A DNA stretch of 64,000 bases from Escherichia coli. GTDB taxonomy: Bacteria > Pseudomonadota > Gammaproteobacteria > Enterobacterales > Enterobacteriaceae. Below the pieces are notes generated by a model, which was not told the DNA's origin, did not search any database, and was given only the letters and a program-made list of their open reading frames with translations. This document shows, one piece after another, positions 34,228-42,283 of the stretch; the stretch's first letter is position 1, and each line of letters opens with the position of its first letter. The stretch lies in assembly GCF_003018255.1 (NCBI RefSeq), contig NZ_CP027440.1; one strand, 5' to 3'. The translations under genes were made by a program, and so were the position numbers.

Positions 34228-35742
34228 TCAGGCAACTGCCTGGCTGACTTTAGGCATCGCAAGGCTCAGTGCCTGACGCTCATCTGCCTGCTCGTGTAAC
34301 AATTCACCGGCGATTTCGCCTTCCCGCATCACCACAATCCGGTCGGCAACGCCGAGGACTTCAGGTAAGTCGCTGGAGGCAAACAGCACCGCCACACCCT
34401 GCGCCGCCAGCGCATAAATTACGTTATATATTTCGTGCTTAGCACCAACATCAATGCCGCGCGTAGGTTCATCCAGCAAAATGACCTTCATCTCTTCCGA
34501 TAACCAGCGGCCCAGAATGGCTTTTTGCTGATTTCCGCCTGAGAGATTCATGATCAGTTGATCAGCGCCCGGCGTTTTGATGTTGAGCGAACGAATGTGG
34601 TGATCGGCATTGTTTTCTTCCCAACCGTTGTTGATTACACAACCGCCGAGCACATGTGTACGTCTGGCACTGATGTTGATATTGTCGCGAACGGAGTGCA
34701 CGGGAATAATGCCTTCCGCTTTGCGATCTTCCGGGCAGAGCATCATGCCTGCGGCAATGGCGTGGCTCGGTTTACGAATATCGATCGGCTGTTGGTCGAT
34801 ATAAACCTGACCGGCGGTGATTTGCGTCCCGCCAAACATGCCTTTCATTAATTCGCTACGCCCTGCCCCGACCAGACCAAACAGACCGACAATTTCACCA
34901 CTGCGAACCGCCAGACTTATTGGCGTACGTACGCCTGGTGCTTTCACAGCATCAAGACGCAGCCGCTCCTCGCCATAACTACGCGGTTGCCAGCCGTAGA
35001 TATCGCCAATGTCTCGCCCGACCATCGCCTGCACCAGTGCGTCGTGGTCAACCTGCTGCATATCGGTAAAGGTTTTGACATAACGCCCATCTTTAAAGAC
35101 GGTGATGGCATCGCTGAGGGCAAATATTTCTTCCATACGGTGAGAAACGTATAAGATCACCCGCCCCTCTTTTCGCAGTTCACGAATAACGCGGAAAAGA
35201 TTGTCGATTTCGCGGGCAGAGAGGGAGCTGGTTGGCTCATCAAAGGCGATAATTTTGGCGTTACGCGCCAGCGCTTTGGCGATTTCAACCATCTGCCACT
35301 GACCAATGGAGAGATATTTCAGCGGCGTGTCCGGGTCAATATCCATACCAAGATGTTTAAGTTGTAAACCCGCCTCATAATTCAGCAATGAGCGATTCAC
35401 AATGCCGCCTTTATGCGGCAGCTGGCCGAGATAGATGTTTTCCGCGACGGTCATTTCCGGCACGAGATGCAGTTCCTGGTAAATAATCGCCACCCCCGCG
35501 TTAAGTGCTGCGGTCGTGTCGGAAAAGGACATTTCCTGCCCATTAATCACTACAGAACCCGTGGTTGGCGCATAGTTGCCGCTGAGGATTTTTAAGAGAG
35601 TTGATTTTCCTGCGCCATTTTCACCCATCAACGCATGAACCTGACCGGCATAGCAATCAAAACTAATATCCGTCAGCGCCTTAACGCCGGGAAACGTTTT
35701 ACCGATGCCGCGAAATGAGAGATACGGGGTAGACTGTTGCAT
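34228..35742 (-). CDS. araG: L-arabinose ABC transporter ATP-binding protein (tandem ABC domains)
   Basis: ORF 34228-35787; start placed at [17 protein letters not shown] (504 aa); two Walker A motifs ([18 protein letters not shown]). Confidence 0.96.
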
Positions 35743-35811
35743 AACGTCTCCGTGAATCACTGGTCGTTCACACCCCCTCTGCATCATGCAGAGGGGAATT
35801 TTTCCGGCAAA

Positions 35812-36801
35812 TTACTTACCGCCTAAACCTTTTTTCTCCAGTTCTTCTTTAAAGTTGTCACGCGTGATCAATACCACGTCGGTAACTTCGGTAAATTTTG
35901 GCGGTTCAACGTCTTTTGCTACCCAGTTGTAAAGCATTTCGCTGGATTTATAGCCATGTACGTCCGGGCTTGGCAGCAGGGAACCGTAGAAGCCGGTTGC
36001 CTGTGCCTTAGACAGTTCGCTCACCGCATCCACACCGTTAATACCGATACCGATGATATCGGCCGCTTTAAAGCCCTGACCTTCCGTCGCGCGTACGCCG
36101 CCAAGTACGGTGCTGTCGTTCATACCGACGATCAGCCAATGTTTAACTTCCGGATGTTGAACCAGCATTGAGTTGGCAGCGTCAAATGCCCCCGGGATGT
36201 CGTTAGATTTGGTAGGTACCTGATAAATTTGTTTTTCCGGGAATCCTGCAGCTTTCAGCGCATCCATAGACCCCGTAGTACGGCGACGAGCCGTATCCAG
36301 TTCGTTGGCGGTAATCGCCATCACCGCGCTTTCTTTGACATCCCAGCCACGTTTCTGCATCTCTTTATACAGTTCCTGGCCCTGACGTTCGCCAATTTTG
36401 GTCGCTGCCATCATCACCAGCGGAACGGTATCCATTGGCTTGCCTTTGGCGTTAACAAACTGGTCATCCACGGCAATGACTTTCATATCGTAGCCACGCG
36501 CTTTCGCCACGATGGCAGAGCCGAGTTTCGGGTCCGGAGTACAAATAACGAAACCTTTTGCGCCACTGGCAGCCAGGCTGTCGATCGCGTTCAATGTTTT
36601 TTCGCCATCCGGCACGGCAATCTTAATAACTTCAAACCCTAAATCCTTCCCAGCTTTATCGGCAAACTTCCATTCGGTCTGGAACCACGGCTCTTCCGGT
36701 TGCTTCACCAGGAAACCGAGCTTCAGGTTCTCCGCCATAGCGGATTGTGACATAACGGCTGCCAGACCAATGGCTGCCAGGGCTTTAGTAAATTTGTGCA
36801 T
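35812..36801 (-). CDS. araF: L-arabinose periplasmic binding protein
   Basis: ORF 35812-36852; start placed at MHKFTKALAAIGLAAVMSQSAMAENLKLGF (329 aa) with signal peptide. Confidence 0.96.
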   Translation of the reverse strand: MHKFTKALAAIGLAAVMSQSAMAENLKLGFLVKQPEEPWFQTEWKFADKAGKDLGFEVIKIAVPDGEKTLNAIDSLAASGAKGFVICTPDPKLGSAIVAKARGYDMKVIAVDDQFVNAKGKPMDTVPLVMMAATKIGERQGQELYKEMQKRGWDVKESAVMAITANELDTARRRTTGSMDALKAAGFPEKQIYQVPTKSNDIPGAFDAANSMLVQHPEVKHWLIVGMNDSTVLGGVRATEGQGFKAADIIGIGINGVDAVSELSKAQATGFYGSLLPSPDVHGYKSSEMLYNWVAKDVEPPKFTEVTDVVLITRDNFKEELEKKGLGGK

Positions 36802-37597
36802 GGTTCTCTCCAGCTTTAGTGTCGTTTTGTGTAGGGCAAAAACGAATGACATTCGTTAAATTAATCGGAAAACAAAGCATTACCTTTTAACTAAAAGATA
36901 AGTGACTGTGTTGACATAGTTTTAGCGAGAAATTAATTCTCCATAGGAGAGCAATATCACATCGCAGAATTACAGTGAGAACGTGCATAAATTTAGCGGG
37001 AAAAGACATAAGGGAAAGCCAATTTGTCAGACAAATTGTCGAATGCACAGCAGATTAATCCATAAGATTAGCCTGGAAATCCTTGTTGTCTTTGGTACCC
37101 ATGCGGGATGTCTTCTTTTTAACCAGTCAATAGGCCGCATTACCTGGCGTTGAGTTTTTGAAATGGTGTAATAACCACAACTCAAAGATGTGGAAAATGC
37201 GCGTCATTCATTTCGCCATTAATTATCACTGTGCTCATTAATTAACAGAACACGTATAATGAGAGCCATCTCGCAAAAATGAAAAAACGTTTTATAAAAT
37301 CATTGCTTCATCATGAATTCAAACCCACCTATTAATATCAACAAGATACAAAAAGCATCATCATTAAAATTCATTGCAGTTACATTGATTTCATCAATGA
37401 AATGTAAAAATATATAAACTTGATGATTTAAGCATTTTCTTATACCCGTTCAGACGTTATTCTTATTTCAGATCATCGTCAGAATTGACTCCACGATCAC
37501 ATTTCGGACCGGCAGAAAGGAATTATTCTGCAAACAGTAATTATGGTGTTTTGATTTATCTTGCACCTTTCCACTTCTGGATATAAGGATATTAGGT

Positions 37598-38101
37598 ATG
37601 GCAACCGCTGGAATGCTTCTCAAACTCAACTCTCAAATGAACCGCGAGTTTTACGCATCCAATCTCTACCTTCACCTGAGTAACTGGTGTTCTGAACAGA
37701 GTCTGAACGGCACCGCCACTTTCCTTCGCGCCCAGGCACAGAGTAATGTGACCCAAATGATGCGCATGTTTAACTTTATGAAGAGTGTCGGCGCTACCCC
37801 AATCGTTAAAGCCATTGATGTTCCCGGTGAAAAACTGAACTCTCTGGAAGAACTGTTCCAAAAAACGATGGAAGAATACGAGCAACGTTCAAGCACGCTG
37901 GCGCAGTTAGCCGATGAAGCGAAAGAACTGAATGATGATTCAACCGTCAATTTCCTGCGCGATCTGGAAAAAGAACAGCAGCATGATGGCCTGTTGCTGC
38001 AAACCATTCTTGATGAAGTGCGCAGTGCGAAACTTGCGGGTATGTGCCCTGTGCAGACCGACCAACATGTTCTGAATGTCGTGTCGCATCAGCTGCATTG
38101 A
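37598..38101 (+). CDS. ftnB: Ferritin-like protein FtnB
   Basis: 167 aa ferritin-fold protein, paralogous to ftnA found 1.3 kb downstream. Confidence 0.9.
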
Positions 38102-38180
38102 TCATACATCGGCGCTAATGCATTGCGCCGATGAAGTTTTTGAGAAACCGCTGCCTCATCTTTTTGAAGCAGCGGTTTTT

Positions 38181-38432
38181 TTAATGGGATTCGCCCTGTG
38201 GGGTAAACTTGAGTTCAATCAGCGCGATGGCTTTTTGGATTGCCCGCATGGTGACCGGGTCTGCGGCGGCGGGATGGTTAGTAAAGTCGATATTCTTCAG
38301 CTGGCTGGACATTTTTTCACGAACTTCAACGGGCGCGATTACATCGAGAACATCCAGAATTTGTTTGATAACCAACTGGCAAGCAACCACATCAGAAACC
38401 AGTTCCTGATCGGCATTCAGCGGCTGGGACAT
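38181..38432 (-). CDS. yecJ: DUF2766-family protein YecJ
   Basis: 83 aa ORF in the conserved ftnB-yecJ-azuC-yecR neighbourhood. Confidence 0.8.
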
Positions 38433-38517
38433 CGTAAACTCCTGATAGCATTTTGAAAGCCGTTATAGTAGCGGCTTCACATCTTCAGCGATAGTCACAT
38501 CCACCGTCATCAGGACA

Positions 38518-38546
38518 CAAAAAAACCTGCCGGAGCAGGTTTTTTG
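38518..38546 (-). terminator. Rho-independent terminator downstream of azuC
   Basis: Stem acctgc (38525-38530) / gcaggt (38535-38540) with A-run before and T-run after; immediately 3' of the azuC stop on the minus strand. Confidence 0.8.
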
Positions 38547-38633
38547 TTATCGGAACATATTGCCTGGCGGTACGTCTTTGAACGTCTTGCAATAGTTATT
38601 GAACATACTTTTCAGGATTTTGCGCAGTTTCAT
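38547..38633 (-). CDS. azuC: Small protein AzuC (28 aa); its mRNA is also the dual-function sRNA AzuCR/IsrB
   Basis: Minus-strand reading ATG(38633-38631)...TAA(38549-38547) translates MKLRKILKSMFNNYCKTFKDVPPGNMFR; absent from the ORF track because it is below the length cutoff. Confidence 0.85.
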   Translation of the reverse strand: MKLRKILKSMFNNYCKTFKDVPPGNMFR

Positions 38634-38895
38634 CGCGGCACTCCAACCATTTGTTATACATGTGTTATTGTCTTTGCGCTTATAATATGACAACCATCAC
38701 AAAAATCAATCTTTATGTGATGTAAATCACATAAATACCCCTTTAATGTTATAAAAATGATAATCAAAAAGCAGCTACCCCATTTCTGACACCTACAGAT
38801 GGCGAGAAATAGCGCCTGCCAGGCGTCTTTTCCGGCCATTGTCGCAGCGCTGTAACGCGTAAAATAGTGCTTTCTTTTACTCTTCTGGCTGGACC

Positions 38896-39219
38896 ATGAG
38901 ACTTCTGATTCTGACTCTTTCATTAATAACGCTGGCGGGGTGTACGGTTACTCGCCAGGCCCATGTGAGCGAAGTTGACGCGGCAACAGGTATTGTACGG
39001 TTGGTTTATGACCAGGCTTTTTTGCAGCATGCCTATACCGATCGTTATGTCAGTCGCGGGATCGCCGATCGCGCATGCCAGCAGGAAGGCTATACCCACG
39101 CTATCCCCTTTGGTCAGCCAGTAGGCAACTGTAGCCTCTTTGCGGGTTCCTTATGTTTGAATACGGAATTCACTTTGTCATATCAGTGCCATCATTCCGC
39201 CTTCCCTGTCTTTCTCTAA
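38896..39219 (+). CDS. yecR: Lipoprotein YecR (flagellar-regulon member)
   Basis: 107 aa with lipobox MRLLILTLSLITLAGC. Confidence 0.88.
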   Translation: MRLLILTLSLITLAGCTVTRQAHVSEVDAATGIVRLVYDQAFLQHAYTDRYVSRGIADRACQQEGYTHAIPFGQPVGNCSLFAGSLCLNTEFTLSYQCHHSAFPVFL

Positions 39220-39390
39220 ATGTTTTAATCAGCGAGGGGGATCTTCGCTGATTAAATAAATAGCGGTAATGCGTTTTATTCCCATTCGTATTTTTAATAA
39301 ATGAAGTTTATATTTTACCTTTTGCAAATAATAAAATAACAAATTATAGTGACGCCACAGCAACAAATATAACCTTTGTGGAGCACTATC

Positions 39391-39888
39391 ATGCTGAAAC
39401 CAGAAATGATTGAAAAACTTAATGAGCAGATGAACCTGGAACTGTACTCTTCACTGCTTTATCAGCAAATGAGCGCCTGGTGCAGCTATCATACCTTCGA
39501 AGGTGCTGCCGCGTTCCTGCGCCGTCACGCCCAGGAAGAGATGACGCATATGCAGCGTCTGTTTGATTATCTGACTGATACCGGCAACTTACCGCGTATT
39601 AATACCGTTGAATCTCCGTTTGCTGAATATTCCTCACTTGATGAATTATTCCAGGAAACCTATAAACACGAACAATTAATCACGCAGAAAATTAACGAAC
39701 TGGCTCATGCTGCAATGACCAATCAGGATTACCCAACATTTAATTTCCTGCAATGGTATGTTTCTGAGCAACATGAAGAAGAGAAACTGTTCAAATCGAT
39801 TATTGATAAATTAAGTCTGGCAGGCAAAAGCGGCGAAGGTTTGTATTTTATCGACAAAGAACTCTCTACCCTCGACACACAAAACTAA
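39391..39888 (+). CDS. ftnA: Ferritin A (iron storage)
   Basis: ORF 39376-39888; start placed at [30 protein letters not shown] (165 aa); ferroxidase-centre Glu/His residues present. Confidence 0.96.
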
Positions 39889-39925
39889 TGTTCTCCGGCG
39901 GCAGGTTTACTGCCGCCGTTTCAAA

Positions 39926-40165
39926 TCAGTGACGGCAAATCTTACTCTGATCGGTCGAAAAACCTTCTTCCGAAGGTATAAATTTGCCTTTTGCTGCCAG
40001 AAACGCCACCAACTCTCCCGCAGTCATCCCTTCTGCCGAGCAGGTGCGAAAACGTGCCTGTTCACCAAAACGCGCTTTAATTGCTGCTTCCAGACTGGCA
40101 TGCGTATATTGCTCGCCTGATTCAATCATCATATTTAACACTTCATGACCGTGAATAGAGTCCAT
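39926..40165 (-). CDS. yecH: DUF2492-family protein YecH
   Basis: 79 aa ORF between ftnA and tyrP, conserved order. Confidence 0.8.
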   Translation of the reverse strand: MDSIHGHEVLNMMIESGEQYTHASLEAAIKARFGEQARFRTCSAEGMTAGELVAFLAAKGKFIPSEEGFSTDQSKICRH

Positions 40166-40246
40166 CGTTCCTCCTCAAAAAAAGCCTAGCGTAGCGATTG
40201 CCGCTTATGAAGACTTTGCGCCAGCGCAGAACTGAACGCTTTTTAT

Positions 40247-40264
40247 TGTACATTTATATTTACA
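40247..40264. promoter_or_regulatory. TyrR box upstream of tyrP
   Basis: TGTACATTTATATTTACA matches the TyrR box consensus TGTAAA-N6-TTTACA; about 90 bp upstream of the tyrP start. Confidence 0.75.
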
Positions 40265-40355
40265 CCATATGTAACGCCGGTTTGACGAATCAGCCGTTAT
40301 GCCTTAACCTGCGCCGCAGATATCACTCATAAAGATCGTCAGGACAGAAGAAAGC

Positions 40356-41567
40356 GTGAAAAACAGAACTCTGGGAAGTGTTTTTATCGTGGCGGGAACC
40401 ACAATTGGCGCAGGCATGCTGGCAATGCCGCTGGCTGCGGCAGGTGTTGGTTTTAGCGTCACGTTAATCTTGTTGATTGGGCTTTGGGCGTTGATGTGCT
40501 ACACGGCGCTATTACTACTGGAGGTGTACCAGCATGTCCCGGCAGATACCGGTCTGGGCACGCTGGCAAAACGCTATCTAGGACGCTACGGTCAGTGGCT
40601 GACGGGCTTCAGTATGATGTTCTTAATGTATGCTCTGACTGCGGCATACATCAGCGGTGCCGGTGAATTGTTGGCCTCCAGCATCAGCGACTGGACAGGT
40701 ATTTCAATGTCGGCAACCGCTGGCGTGCTGTTGTTCACTTTTGTTGCCGGTGGCGTGGTTTGTGTCGGGACATCGCTGGTCGATTTATTTAACCGTTTTC
40801 TGTTCAGCGCCAAAATTATTTTTCTGGTGGTGATGCTGGTATTGCTGCTACCGCATATTCACAAAGTGAATCTTTTAACCCTGCCGTTGCAACAGGGACT
40901 GGCACTGTCTGCAATCCCGGTGATTTTTACGTCGTTTGGTTTTCACGGTAGCGTGCCGAGTATTGTCAGCTATATGGATGGCAACATTCGTAAGCTACGC
41001 TGGGTGTTTATAATCGGTAGTGCGATCCCCCTGGTGGCATATATTTTCTGGCAGCTGGCGACCCTTGGCAGCATTGATTCAACAACCTTTATGGGATTGC
41101 TGGCTAATCATGCCGGATTAAACGGGCTGTTACAGGCGTTACGCGAAATGGTGGCCTCTCCGCATGTTGAGCTGGCAGTGCATTTATTTGCTGATTTAGC
41201 CCTCGCCACGTCCTTCCTCGGCGTAGCGTTAGGCTTATTTGATTATCTGGCAGATTTGTTTCAGCGTTCAAATACCGTTGGTGGACGATTGCAAACTGGT
41301 GCAATTACCTTTCTGCCGCCACTGGCGTTTGCACTGTTTTATCCACGAGGATTTGTGATGGCGCTGGGTTACGCCGGTGTGGCGCTGGCGGTACTGGCAT
41401 TGATTATCCCTTCGCTGTTGACCTGGCAAAGCAGGAAGCACAATCCTCAGGCGGGTTACCGGGTGAAAGGTGGTCGTCCGGCGCTGGTGGTGGTGTTTCT
41501 CTGTGGTATTGCTGTGATTGGCGTGCAATTTTTGATTGCGGCAGGCTTGTTACCAGAAGTGGGGTGA
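40356..41567 (+). CDS. tyrP: Tyrosine-specific transporter
   Basis: 403 aa, GTG start, polytopic membrane protein of the HAAAP family ([30 protein letters not shown]). Confidence 0.95.
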
Positions 41568-41617
41568 TTAGATTCTTATTGGGTGCCAGAATTAACGCTG
41601 ACACCCAATTTGACCTC

Positions 41618-42283
41618 TTAATGCAGGCAGCACTGCTTAAATTTCTTACCACTACCGCACGGACAAGGATCGTTACGCCCCGGTTTCTCTTCTGCTTTGA
41701 TAGGTTGCTGAACAGCTTTTTCCTGCGGATGCGCCATCCAGTATGCATGTAAATCAAGCGCCGCCAGTCGAATAGCATCTACGCTCTCTTCAAACGCTTC
41801 TGGCGACATCTTCTCTACCCGCTCGAAGTTTTCCTCAGTACCGTGCAGCGCAATCGCATCCAGCGCTGGTTTTAACGAATCGGGCAACGTTGACCAGTCA
41901 GAAAGTGCCACGCCCCGCATATAGCCAAAGCACCACTCCTCAACAATCGTCAGCTCGCTGCCATCGACTTCTCGCAAGCCGAATAACGGCTCAAACTGCT
42001 CCGGGAATTCGTTCAGACGCTCTGCGGTATCAGCCATATGTTGAAAAGCCAGGTTCATAAAGCGCGTCATCTCTTTCTCTGACGCCCAGCGCGGCACATA
42101 GTCAGCCCCACCCCACACGGCAACCAGCCACTGTGCCGGTTCAATCTCTTGCGGAGAACTCAACACCGCCGTCAATAAACCGTCCAGCTCCGCCACATCA
42201 AGAATGGCGTGGTCAGTGTTGTATTTGGTCAGAATATCGTCCAGCCATTCCAACTCACTTTCGTTTAACGGTCCCGTTTTCAT
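41618..42283 (-). CDS. yecA: UPF0149 protein with C-terminal SEC-C metal-binding motif
   Basis: 221 aa ending in [17 protein letters not shown] (SEC-C zinc-binding motif). Confidence 0.9.

Follow-up and report, generated by a model that had tools for sequence, protein, structure and literature searches.

An 18-codon reading frame behind a TATAAT hexamer upstream of ftnB in Escherichia coli is very probably a chance ORF

The stretch of Escherichia coli DNA analysed here (64,000 nucleotides, hereafter the window) carries, between araF and ftnB, an 18-codon open reading frame (ORF), MKKRFIKSLLHHEFKPTY followed by TAA (37279–37335, plus strand), behind a perfect −10-like hexamer, TATAAT (37255–37260, plus strand). 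With high confidence we interpret the frame as a chance ORF, confined to E. coli, and the TATAAT as a chance or cryptic hexamer, both located in Escherichia-specific, far-upstream regulatory DNA of ftnB. The chance reading is based on the anatomy of the frame, its chance expectation, the loss of its start codon in the sister species, and its hypervariability without codon periodicity. As a promoter-like element, the hexamer is most likely cryptic and silenced; we infer that it drives no or negligible transcription and that the ORF yields no peptide.

The locus is arranged as araH-araG-araF on the minus strand (the araF start codon ends at 36801), a 796-bp spacer (36802–37597), ftnB, a ferritin-like gene on the plus strand (37598–38101, with its ATG at 37598), and then yecJ, azuC/azuR and yecR. 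Over 7 kb, the window is 98.0% identical to K-12 MG1655, and its FtnB protein is identical to K-12 FtnB. The description of the spacer as long and AT-rich holds, with a GC content of 35% over the 796 bp and of 29% over 37200–37420. As a whole, the spacer is 97–99% identical in 5,412 genomes. No RefSeq annotation was found at the 18-codon ORF among the matches listed of 5417 matching genomes and in curated K-12, and no Rfam family matches inside the spacer at E ≤ 1. A full-text literature search for the peptide or for the label ‘araF-ftnB’ returned no papers, and MKKRFIK, ftnB and araF gave no match in the supplements of an enterobacterial microproteome survey (PMC11188072), each of which is weak evidence. 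A small RNA at the ORF was also considered and rejected: there is no Rfam match, no plus-strand terminator was found between 37267 and the ftnB promoter, and the RNA folding of 37267–37420 is unremarkable (z = −0.20). Elsewhere in the locus, the gap between yecJ and azuC/azuR shows a weak Rfam match on the plus strand (38487–38551) to the enterobacterial sRNA STnc370, at 33.4 bits versus a gathering value of 54 (E = 0.057).

All elements reported in the preliminary description are present in the sequence, i.e. the TATAAT, a gap of 18 bp, the ATG at 37279–37281, 18 codons and the TAA stop at 37333–37335. The reported lack of an obvious Shine–Dalgarno (SD) sequence was likewise confirmed, with none within the 13 nt 5′ of the ATG; a GAGAG located 14–18 nt upstream of the ATG is too distant to serve as one. 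A TSS ~7 nt past the TATAAT would give a leader of ~12 nt, and hence an mRNA that has no SD yet is not leaderless. The chance expectation was obtained from 2000 dinucleotide-preserving shuffles of the 796-bp spacer. The shuffled spacer gives an expectation of 11.4 ATG-initiated ORFs of at least 18 codons, compared with 9 observed in the real one, which in all contains 23 ORFs of 12 codons or more, the 18-codon ORF among them. TATAAT is expected 1.04 times on either strand, with at least one copy in 62% of the shuffles, and a TATAAT placed 5–41 nt upstream of an ATG-initiated ORF of at least 18 codons appears in 17% of them (P = 0.17). The hexamer, the ORF and their arrangement do not exceed chance.

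As a promoter signal, the hexamer stands alone. While it matches the −10 consensus at 6/6 positions, the best −35 at 17-bp spacing is TGCTCA, a poor match (3/6), and the ACG directly 5′ of it means that there is no TGn extended −10. A scan of 36700–37700 for consensus two-hexamer promoters returned 0 promoter-like sites. Among 13 E. coli alleles, 11 keep TATAAT and 2 carry TATACT. The position is partly kept in other Escherichia, reading GAATAAT, CCATAAT, GCACAAT or TATAAT, and is degenerate in three of the six non-coli lineages; ATAATG(A/C)G(A/G)GC is partly retained there, and conservation of the hexamer core is somewhat above that of the sequence directly flanking it. With a perfect −10 retained in 11/13 alleles and partly in other Escherichia, weak or conditional initiation, e.g. 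on loss of H-NS, is conceivable, which counts against the chance reading. In E. coli O157:H16 Res13-Lact-PEA12-26, an IS1A element (1543–2310 of locus L050) is inserted directly 5′ of, and partly within, the TATAAT, with a 9-bp target duplication, GAACACGTA (37248–37256), showing that disruption here is tolerated.

Variation within the species was assessed using 13 aligned E. coli alleles of the 796-bp spacer, in which 79 of the 796 columns are polymorphic. The spacer maximum, 15 polymorphic sites, is reached in the bin 37302–37351, with a hot spot covering the 3′ half of the ORF (37304–37330). Within the ORF, 15 of the 54 coding nucleotides vary, split 4/7/4 over the three codon positions, without third-position bias. 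The 13 alleles encode 10 different peptides, and ordinary E. coli strains differ from one another at 4–5 residues. Both the start codon and the length of 18 codons persist in 12 of the 13 alleles, which counts against the chance reading. In the sampled O157:H7 genomes, codon 8 is changed from TCA to a nonsense TAA, and at least 12 O157-type genomes share this 159-bp allele at 100% identity. The 161-bp segment surrounding the ORF (37215–37375) shows just 90–95% identity to the window in 4,633 genomes. The exact 161-bp allele of the window occurs in no complete E. coli genome, the best full-length match being 96.9% and the sole match of at least 99% being a 42-bp fragment. Compared with K-12, 9 of the 13 differences in the spacer fall inside 55 bp (the cluster at 37304–37330 plus 37358–37359). 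The quasi-palindrome ATGAATT-CA-AATTCAT of the majority (K-12) allele is absent from the window allele (AACCCAC); template switching or a small recombination tract could account for this multi-base difference.

The codon-level conservation expected of an expressed gene is lacking between species as well. A genome scan with FtnB yielded 38 loci from Escherichia, Citrobacter, Salmonella, Leclercia, Lelliottia and others, most of them with araF upstream of ftnB. Beyond Escherichia, the spacer can be aligned only over 286 bp on the araF side (36802–37087) and 200–270 bp on the ftnB side (from ~37326–37394 onward), and the TATAAT and most of the ORF have no alignable counterpart there. Within the genus, the ATG at 37279 is gone from all six non-coli lineages in the alignment: CTG stands in its place in E1V33, E. 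whittamii and SCPM-O-B-8794, CTA in E69, and ATA together with a 1-nt indel in Escherichia sp. MOD1-EC7003, and E. albertii cannot be aligned at this position. The 18-codon frame is intact only in E. coli. Across seven Escherichia lineages, identity to the window at codon positions 1, 2 and 3 is 0.635, 0.603 and 0.611, showing that the ORF has no coding periodicity. The earlier judgement that this is most likely a chance ORF therefore agrees with the shuffles, the start-codon loss and the hypervariability.

In Citrobacter, Salmonella, Lelliottia, Leclercia and Silvania, a 185-aa DJ-1/PfpI-like gene (MKKVAVLLAPGFEEAEA...) lies on the minus strand between araF and ftnB, at about 1890–2590 in each of loci L007–L038 (interrupted in L036). 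Escherichia is without this gene, and the ORF-bearing segment sits at its position. We rejected the segment as a remnant of the gene, as tblastn against the Escherichia spacers returned only noise (E > 1).

Published K-12 datasets, i.e. from another strain than that of the window, were used to look for transcription at the site. K-12 coordinates are those of NC_000913.2 (v2), with window position = v2 − 1947351; the mapping was checked with a listed FNR motif, whose start, 1984679, is the first T of the K-12 motif. In the TSS table of Kim et al. 2012 (PMC3415461), ftnB starts at 1984821 (window 37470; 124 reads; 128-nt 5′ UTR) and araF at 1984410 (window 37059; 3 reads). None of its 3,746 TSSs lies near the predicted 1984617 (window 37266), with no entry prefixed 19845, 19846 or 19847. 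The only σ70 ChIP-seq summit reported in the spacer is at 1984820 (window 37469; Myers et al. 2013, PMC3688515, Tables S1 and S2); there is no separate peak at the TATAAT, where it should be noted that ChIP-seq cannot separate a weak peak from a strong neighbour at 200 bp. Given the missing codon-level conservation and the lack of a TSS or separate σ70 peak in the K-12 data examined, which are of limited depth, the suggestion of an expressed, leaderless or near-leaderless transcript is not supported, and any leader would be ~12 nt long. The H-NS ChIP-chip regions of the same study (PMC3688515, Table S3), 1983947–1985830 under anaerobic conditions (window 36596–38479) and a larger aerobic one at 1982242–1989198 (window 34891–41847), both span the entire araF-ftnB spacer. 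In Salmonella, H-NS is reported to bind and repress ftnB (PMC3212961).

The K-12 spacer also contains a consensus FNR site, TTGAT-TAAT-ATCAA (TTGATTAATATCAA; 37328–37341), centred ~135 bp upstream of the ftnB TSS at a position that overlaps the 18-codon ORF at its final codons and stop. It is catalogued as a predicted site at 1984679 with a score of 15.49 and the label araF/ftnB (PMC3688515, Table S6), has no FNR ChIP-seq peak, is enriched for H-NS, and was termed ‘silent’ in that study, being occluded by H-NS. The stretch had been described as a region of unassigned function, which is not quite right, as in K-12 the DNA is H-NS-bound and holds this catalogued silent site (PMC3688515, Tables S3 and S6). 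In the window the position reads CCTAT-TAAT-ATCAA, with 3 mismatches and the left half-site lost, and an FNR motif scan gave no match at ≤2 mismatches. K-12, REL606 and O157:H7 have TTGAT as the left half, and most of the other strains sampled have TCGAT; CCGAT and TCTAT occur as further variants among the 13 alleles, besides the CCTAT of the window. The right half, ATCAA, is invariant in the 13 E. coli alleles and kept in 8/8 aligned Escherichia sequences. Binding of FNR at the ftnB promoter region in vivo has been reported (PMC2690998) and is discussed in PMC3212961.

Between 37215 and 37345, AT-rich and partly conserved islands (TTAATTATCAC, TCATTAATTAA, ATAATGAGAGC, CATCATCATGA and TTAATATCAA) are separated by variable DNA. 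Conserved blocks alternating with variable spacers, without triplet periodicity, point to protein-binding DNA. At 37260–37275, overlapping the last base of the TATAAT, lies a CRP-like palindrome, TGAGA-N6-TCGCA, with 2 mismatches to TGTGA-N6-TCACA. Its half-sites are better kept than the spacer (TGCGA-N6-TCGCA in E. whittamii, TGAGA-N6-TCACA in E. albertii), and chance alone would give ~0.3 such matches in 796 bp. A Fur box was sought in the spacer and rejected, the best matches having 7/19 mismatches, which agrees with the report that Salmonella ftnB has no recognisable Fur motif (PMC3212961).

From 37393 onward, the CpxR-like box, the promoter and the leader of ftnB are nearly invariant in Escherichia. 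The block ATCAATGAAATGTAAAAATATATAAAC (37393–37419), strongly conserved in all Escherichia, holds a CpxR-box-like repeat, GTAAA-N5-ATAAA (37404–37418, plus strand, 1 mismatch), ~60 bp upstream of the ftnB TSS. This is the probable CpxR site of the ftnB promoter, and ftnB is listed among Cpx-activated genes (PMC9600279). Just 5′ of the block, E. coli has an inverted repeat, CATTGAT-TTC-ATCAATG, whose 3-nt spacing is not that of FNR. The 128-nt 5′ UTR (37470–37597, plus strand) contains four GGA motifs as CsrA sites, consistent with the report of an ftnB leader of matching length in which CsrA binds four GGA motifs (Pourciau et al. 2019, PMC6686035). A 33-codon TTG-initiated frame in this UTR (37485–37586), ending in the SD region, is intact in seven Escherichia lineages. 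It was rejected as a conserved uORF, as indels and an inserted hairpin break the frame in Citrobacter and Salmonella; the frame is intact in Escherichia only because the leader is nearly invariant there, and constraint on the CsrA-bound leader at the nucleotide level explains this best. At the araF end, conservation of the block TAGCAGATTAATCCATAAGATTAGCC (37048–37085) extends well past Escherichia, and the block resembles an AraC half-site, with 4 mismatches to an I1-like pattern. The araF TSS at 37059, the only one mapped for araF by Kim et al. 2012, lies inside this block, suggesting that this weak start is not the arabinose-induced one.

Taken together, our preferred explanation is as follows. 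The AT-rich, Escherichia-specific stretch forms part of the far-upstream regulatory DNA of ftnB; in K-12 it is coated by H-NS, and its consensus FNR site is unoccupied in the wild type. ftnB is transcribed from the promoter ~200 bp further downstream (TSS ~37470), beside the conserved CpxR box. What is conserved in the segment are short AT-rich islands of the kind seen in protein-binding DNA, and not the reading frame.

Three other explanations deserve consideration. The most probable of them, though still tentative, is that regulators of ftnB or araFGH bind the islands, the TATAAT among them, so that the hexamer would be conserved as part of a site and not as a promoter. Candidate sites would be FNR at 37328–41, the CRP-like palindrome at 37260–75 and an ArcA-like TGTTAATTAA on the minus strand at ~37239–48. 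The alternation of conserved blocks with variable DNA speaks for it, as do the score of the K-12 FNR motif (15.49, among the best in the genome), the reported in vivo FNR binding at the ftnB promoter region (PMC2690998) and the better-kept CRP-like half-sites. However, wild-type FNR ChIP-seq shows no occupancy, the left FNR half is polymorphic in E. coli and lost in the window, and a CRP-like match with 2 mismatches has an expectation of ~0.3 by chance in 796 bp.

We consider it unlikely that the TATAAT is a genuine promoter silenced by H-NS, which on derepression would give non-coding read-through into the ftnB control region, as a distal promoter or by interference, the ORF being irrelevant. 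H-NS is known to silence numerous promoter-like sequences where the DNA is AT-rich, and this hexamer would fit such a picture by its perfect consensus −10, its AT-rich upstream DNA, the partly conserved core ATAATGAGAGC in Escherichia, the extended H-NS region over the site and the terminator-free plus strand from 37267 to the ftnB promoter. Yet it has neither a −35 nor a TGn, two of the E. coli alleles carry TATACT, 3/6 other Escherichia lineages have a degenerate form, and no wild-type TSS is reported for it. Very improbable, in our estimate, is a proto-gene, i.e. a young E. coli-specific micro-protein driven by the TATAAT, with a ~12-nt SD-less leader and low or conditional translation (under H-NS relief or anaerobiosis). 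In its favour would be the perfect −10 located 18 bp before the ATG, the A-rich leader without structure that comes next, and the upkeep of ATG and ORF length in 12/13 E. coli alleles. These are outweighed by the 4–5 residues that vary between strains, the nonsense allele of the sampled O157:H7, the lack of codon periodicity and the absence of the start codon from every sister species; moreover, neither a TSS nor a σ70 peak is reported at the site, H-NS covers it in K-12, and the arrangement is within chance expectation. Hardly more probable is a bolder scenario in which the TATAAT fires only on H-NS displacement and the 18-codon frame is then translated as a fast-evolving proto-gene, or in which the variable patch reflects selection on the FNR half-site, with lineages differing in the oxygen control of ftnB/araFGH.

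The chance reading can be placed beside known systems. With spurious or cryptic promoters in H-NS-bound AT-rich DNA, the site shares a GC content of 29–35%, a lone consensus −10 without −35, H-NS over the whole K-12 spacer, and no TSS or σ70 summit reported at the site. It differs from them in that the TATAAT core is kept somewhat better than its flanks, and firing on H-NS removal is conjecture here. Like the validated small protein AzuC (28 aa), encoded 1.2 kb away, the frame is a short intergenic ATG ORF. AzuC, however, is annotated in curated K-12, whereas the 18-codon ORF has no annotation in the RefSeq genomes inspected, has no SD and no conservation beyond E. coli, is hypervariable, and carries a nonsense codon in the sampled O157:H7. 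With respect to the ‘silent’ FNR sites of Myers et al. 2013 (PMC3688515), which nucleoid-associated proteins occlude, the window copy differs by having CCTAT for TTGAT, and it is therefore no longer a consensus FNR site.

In summary, a candidate micro-gene is removed from the list, which in itself matters little. As a by-product, the analysis gives a map of the spacer: a conserved control block on the araF side; a middle part that is H-NS-coated in K-12, Escherichia-specific, and in place of the DJ-1/PfpI-like gene of other enterobacteria; a silent consensus FNR site whose left half differs between E. coli strains; and, at the ftnB end, a conserved CpxR box, the promoter and a CsrA-controlled leader. 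The strain-variable FNR half-site is only a mildly interesting by-product; if anything in the spacer merits an experiment, it would be this half-site and not the ORF.
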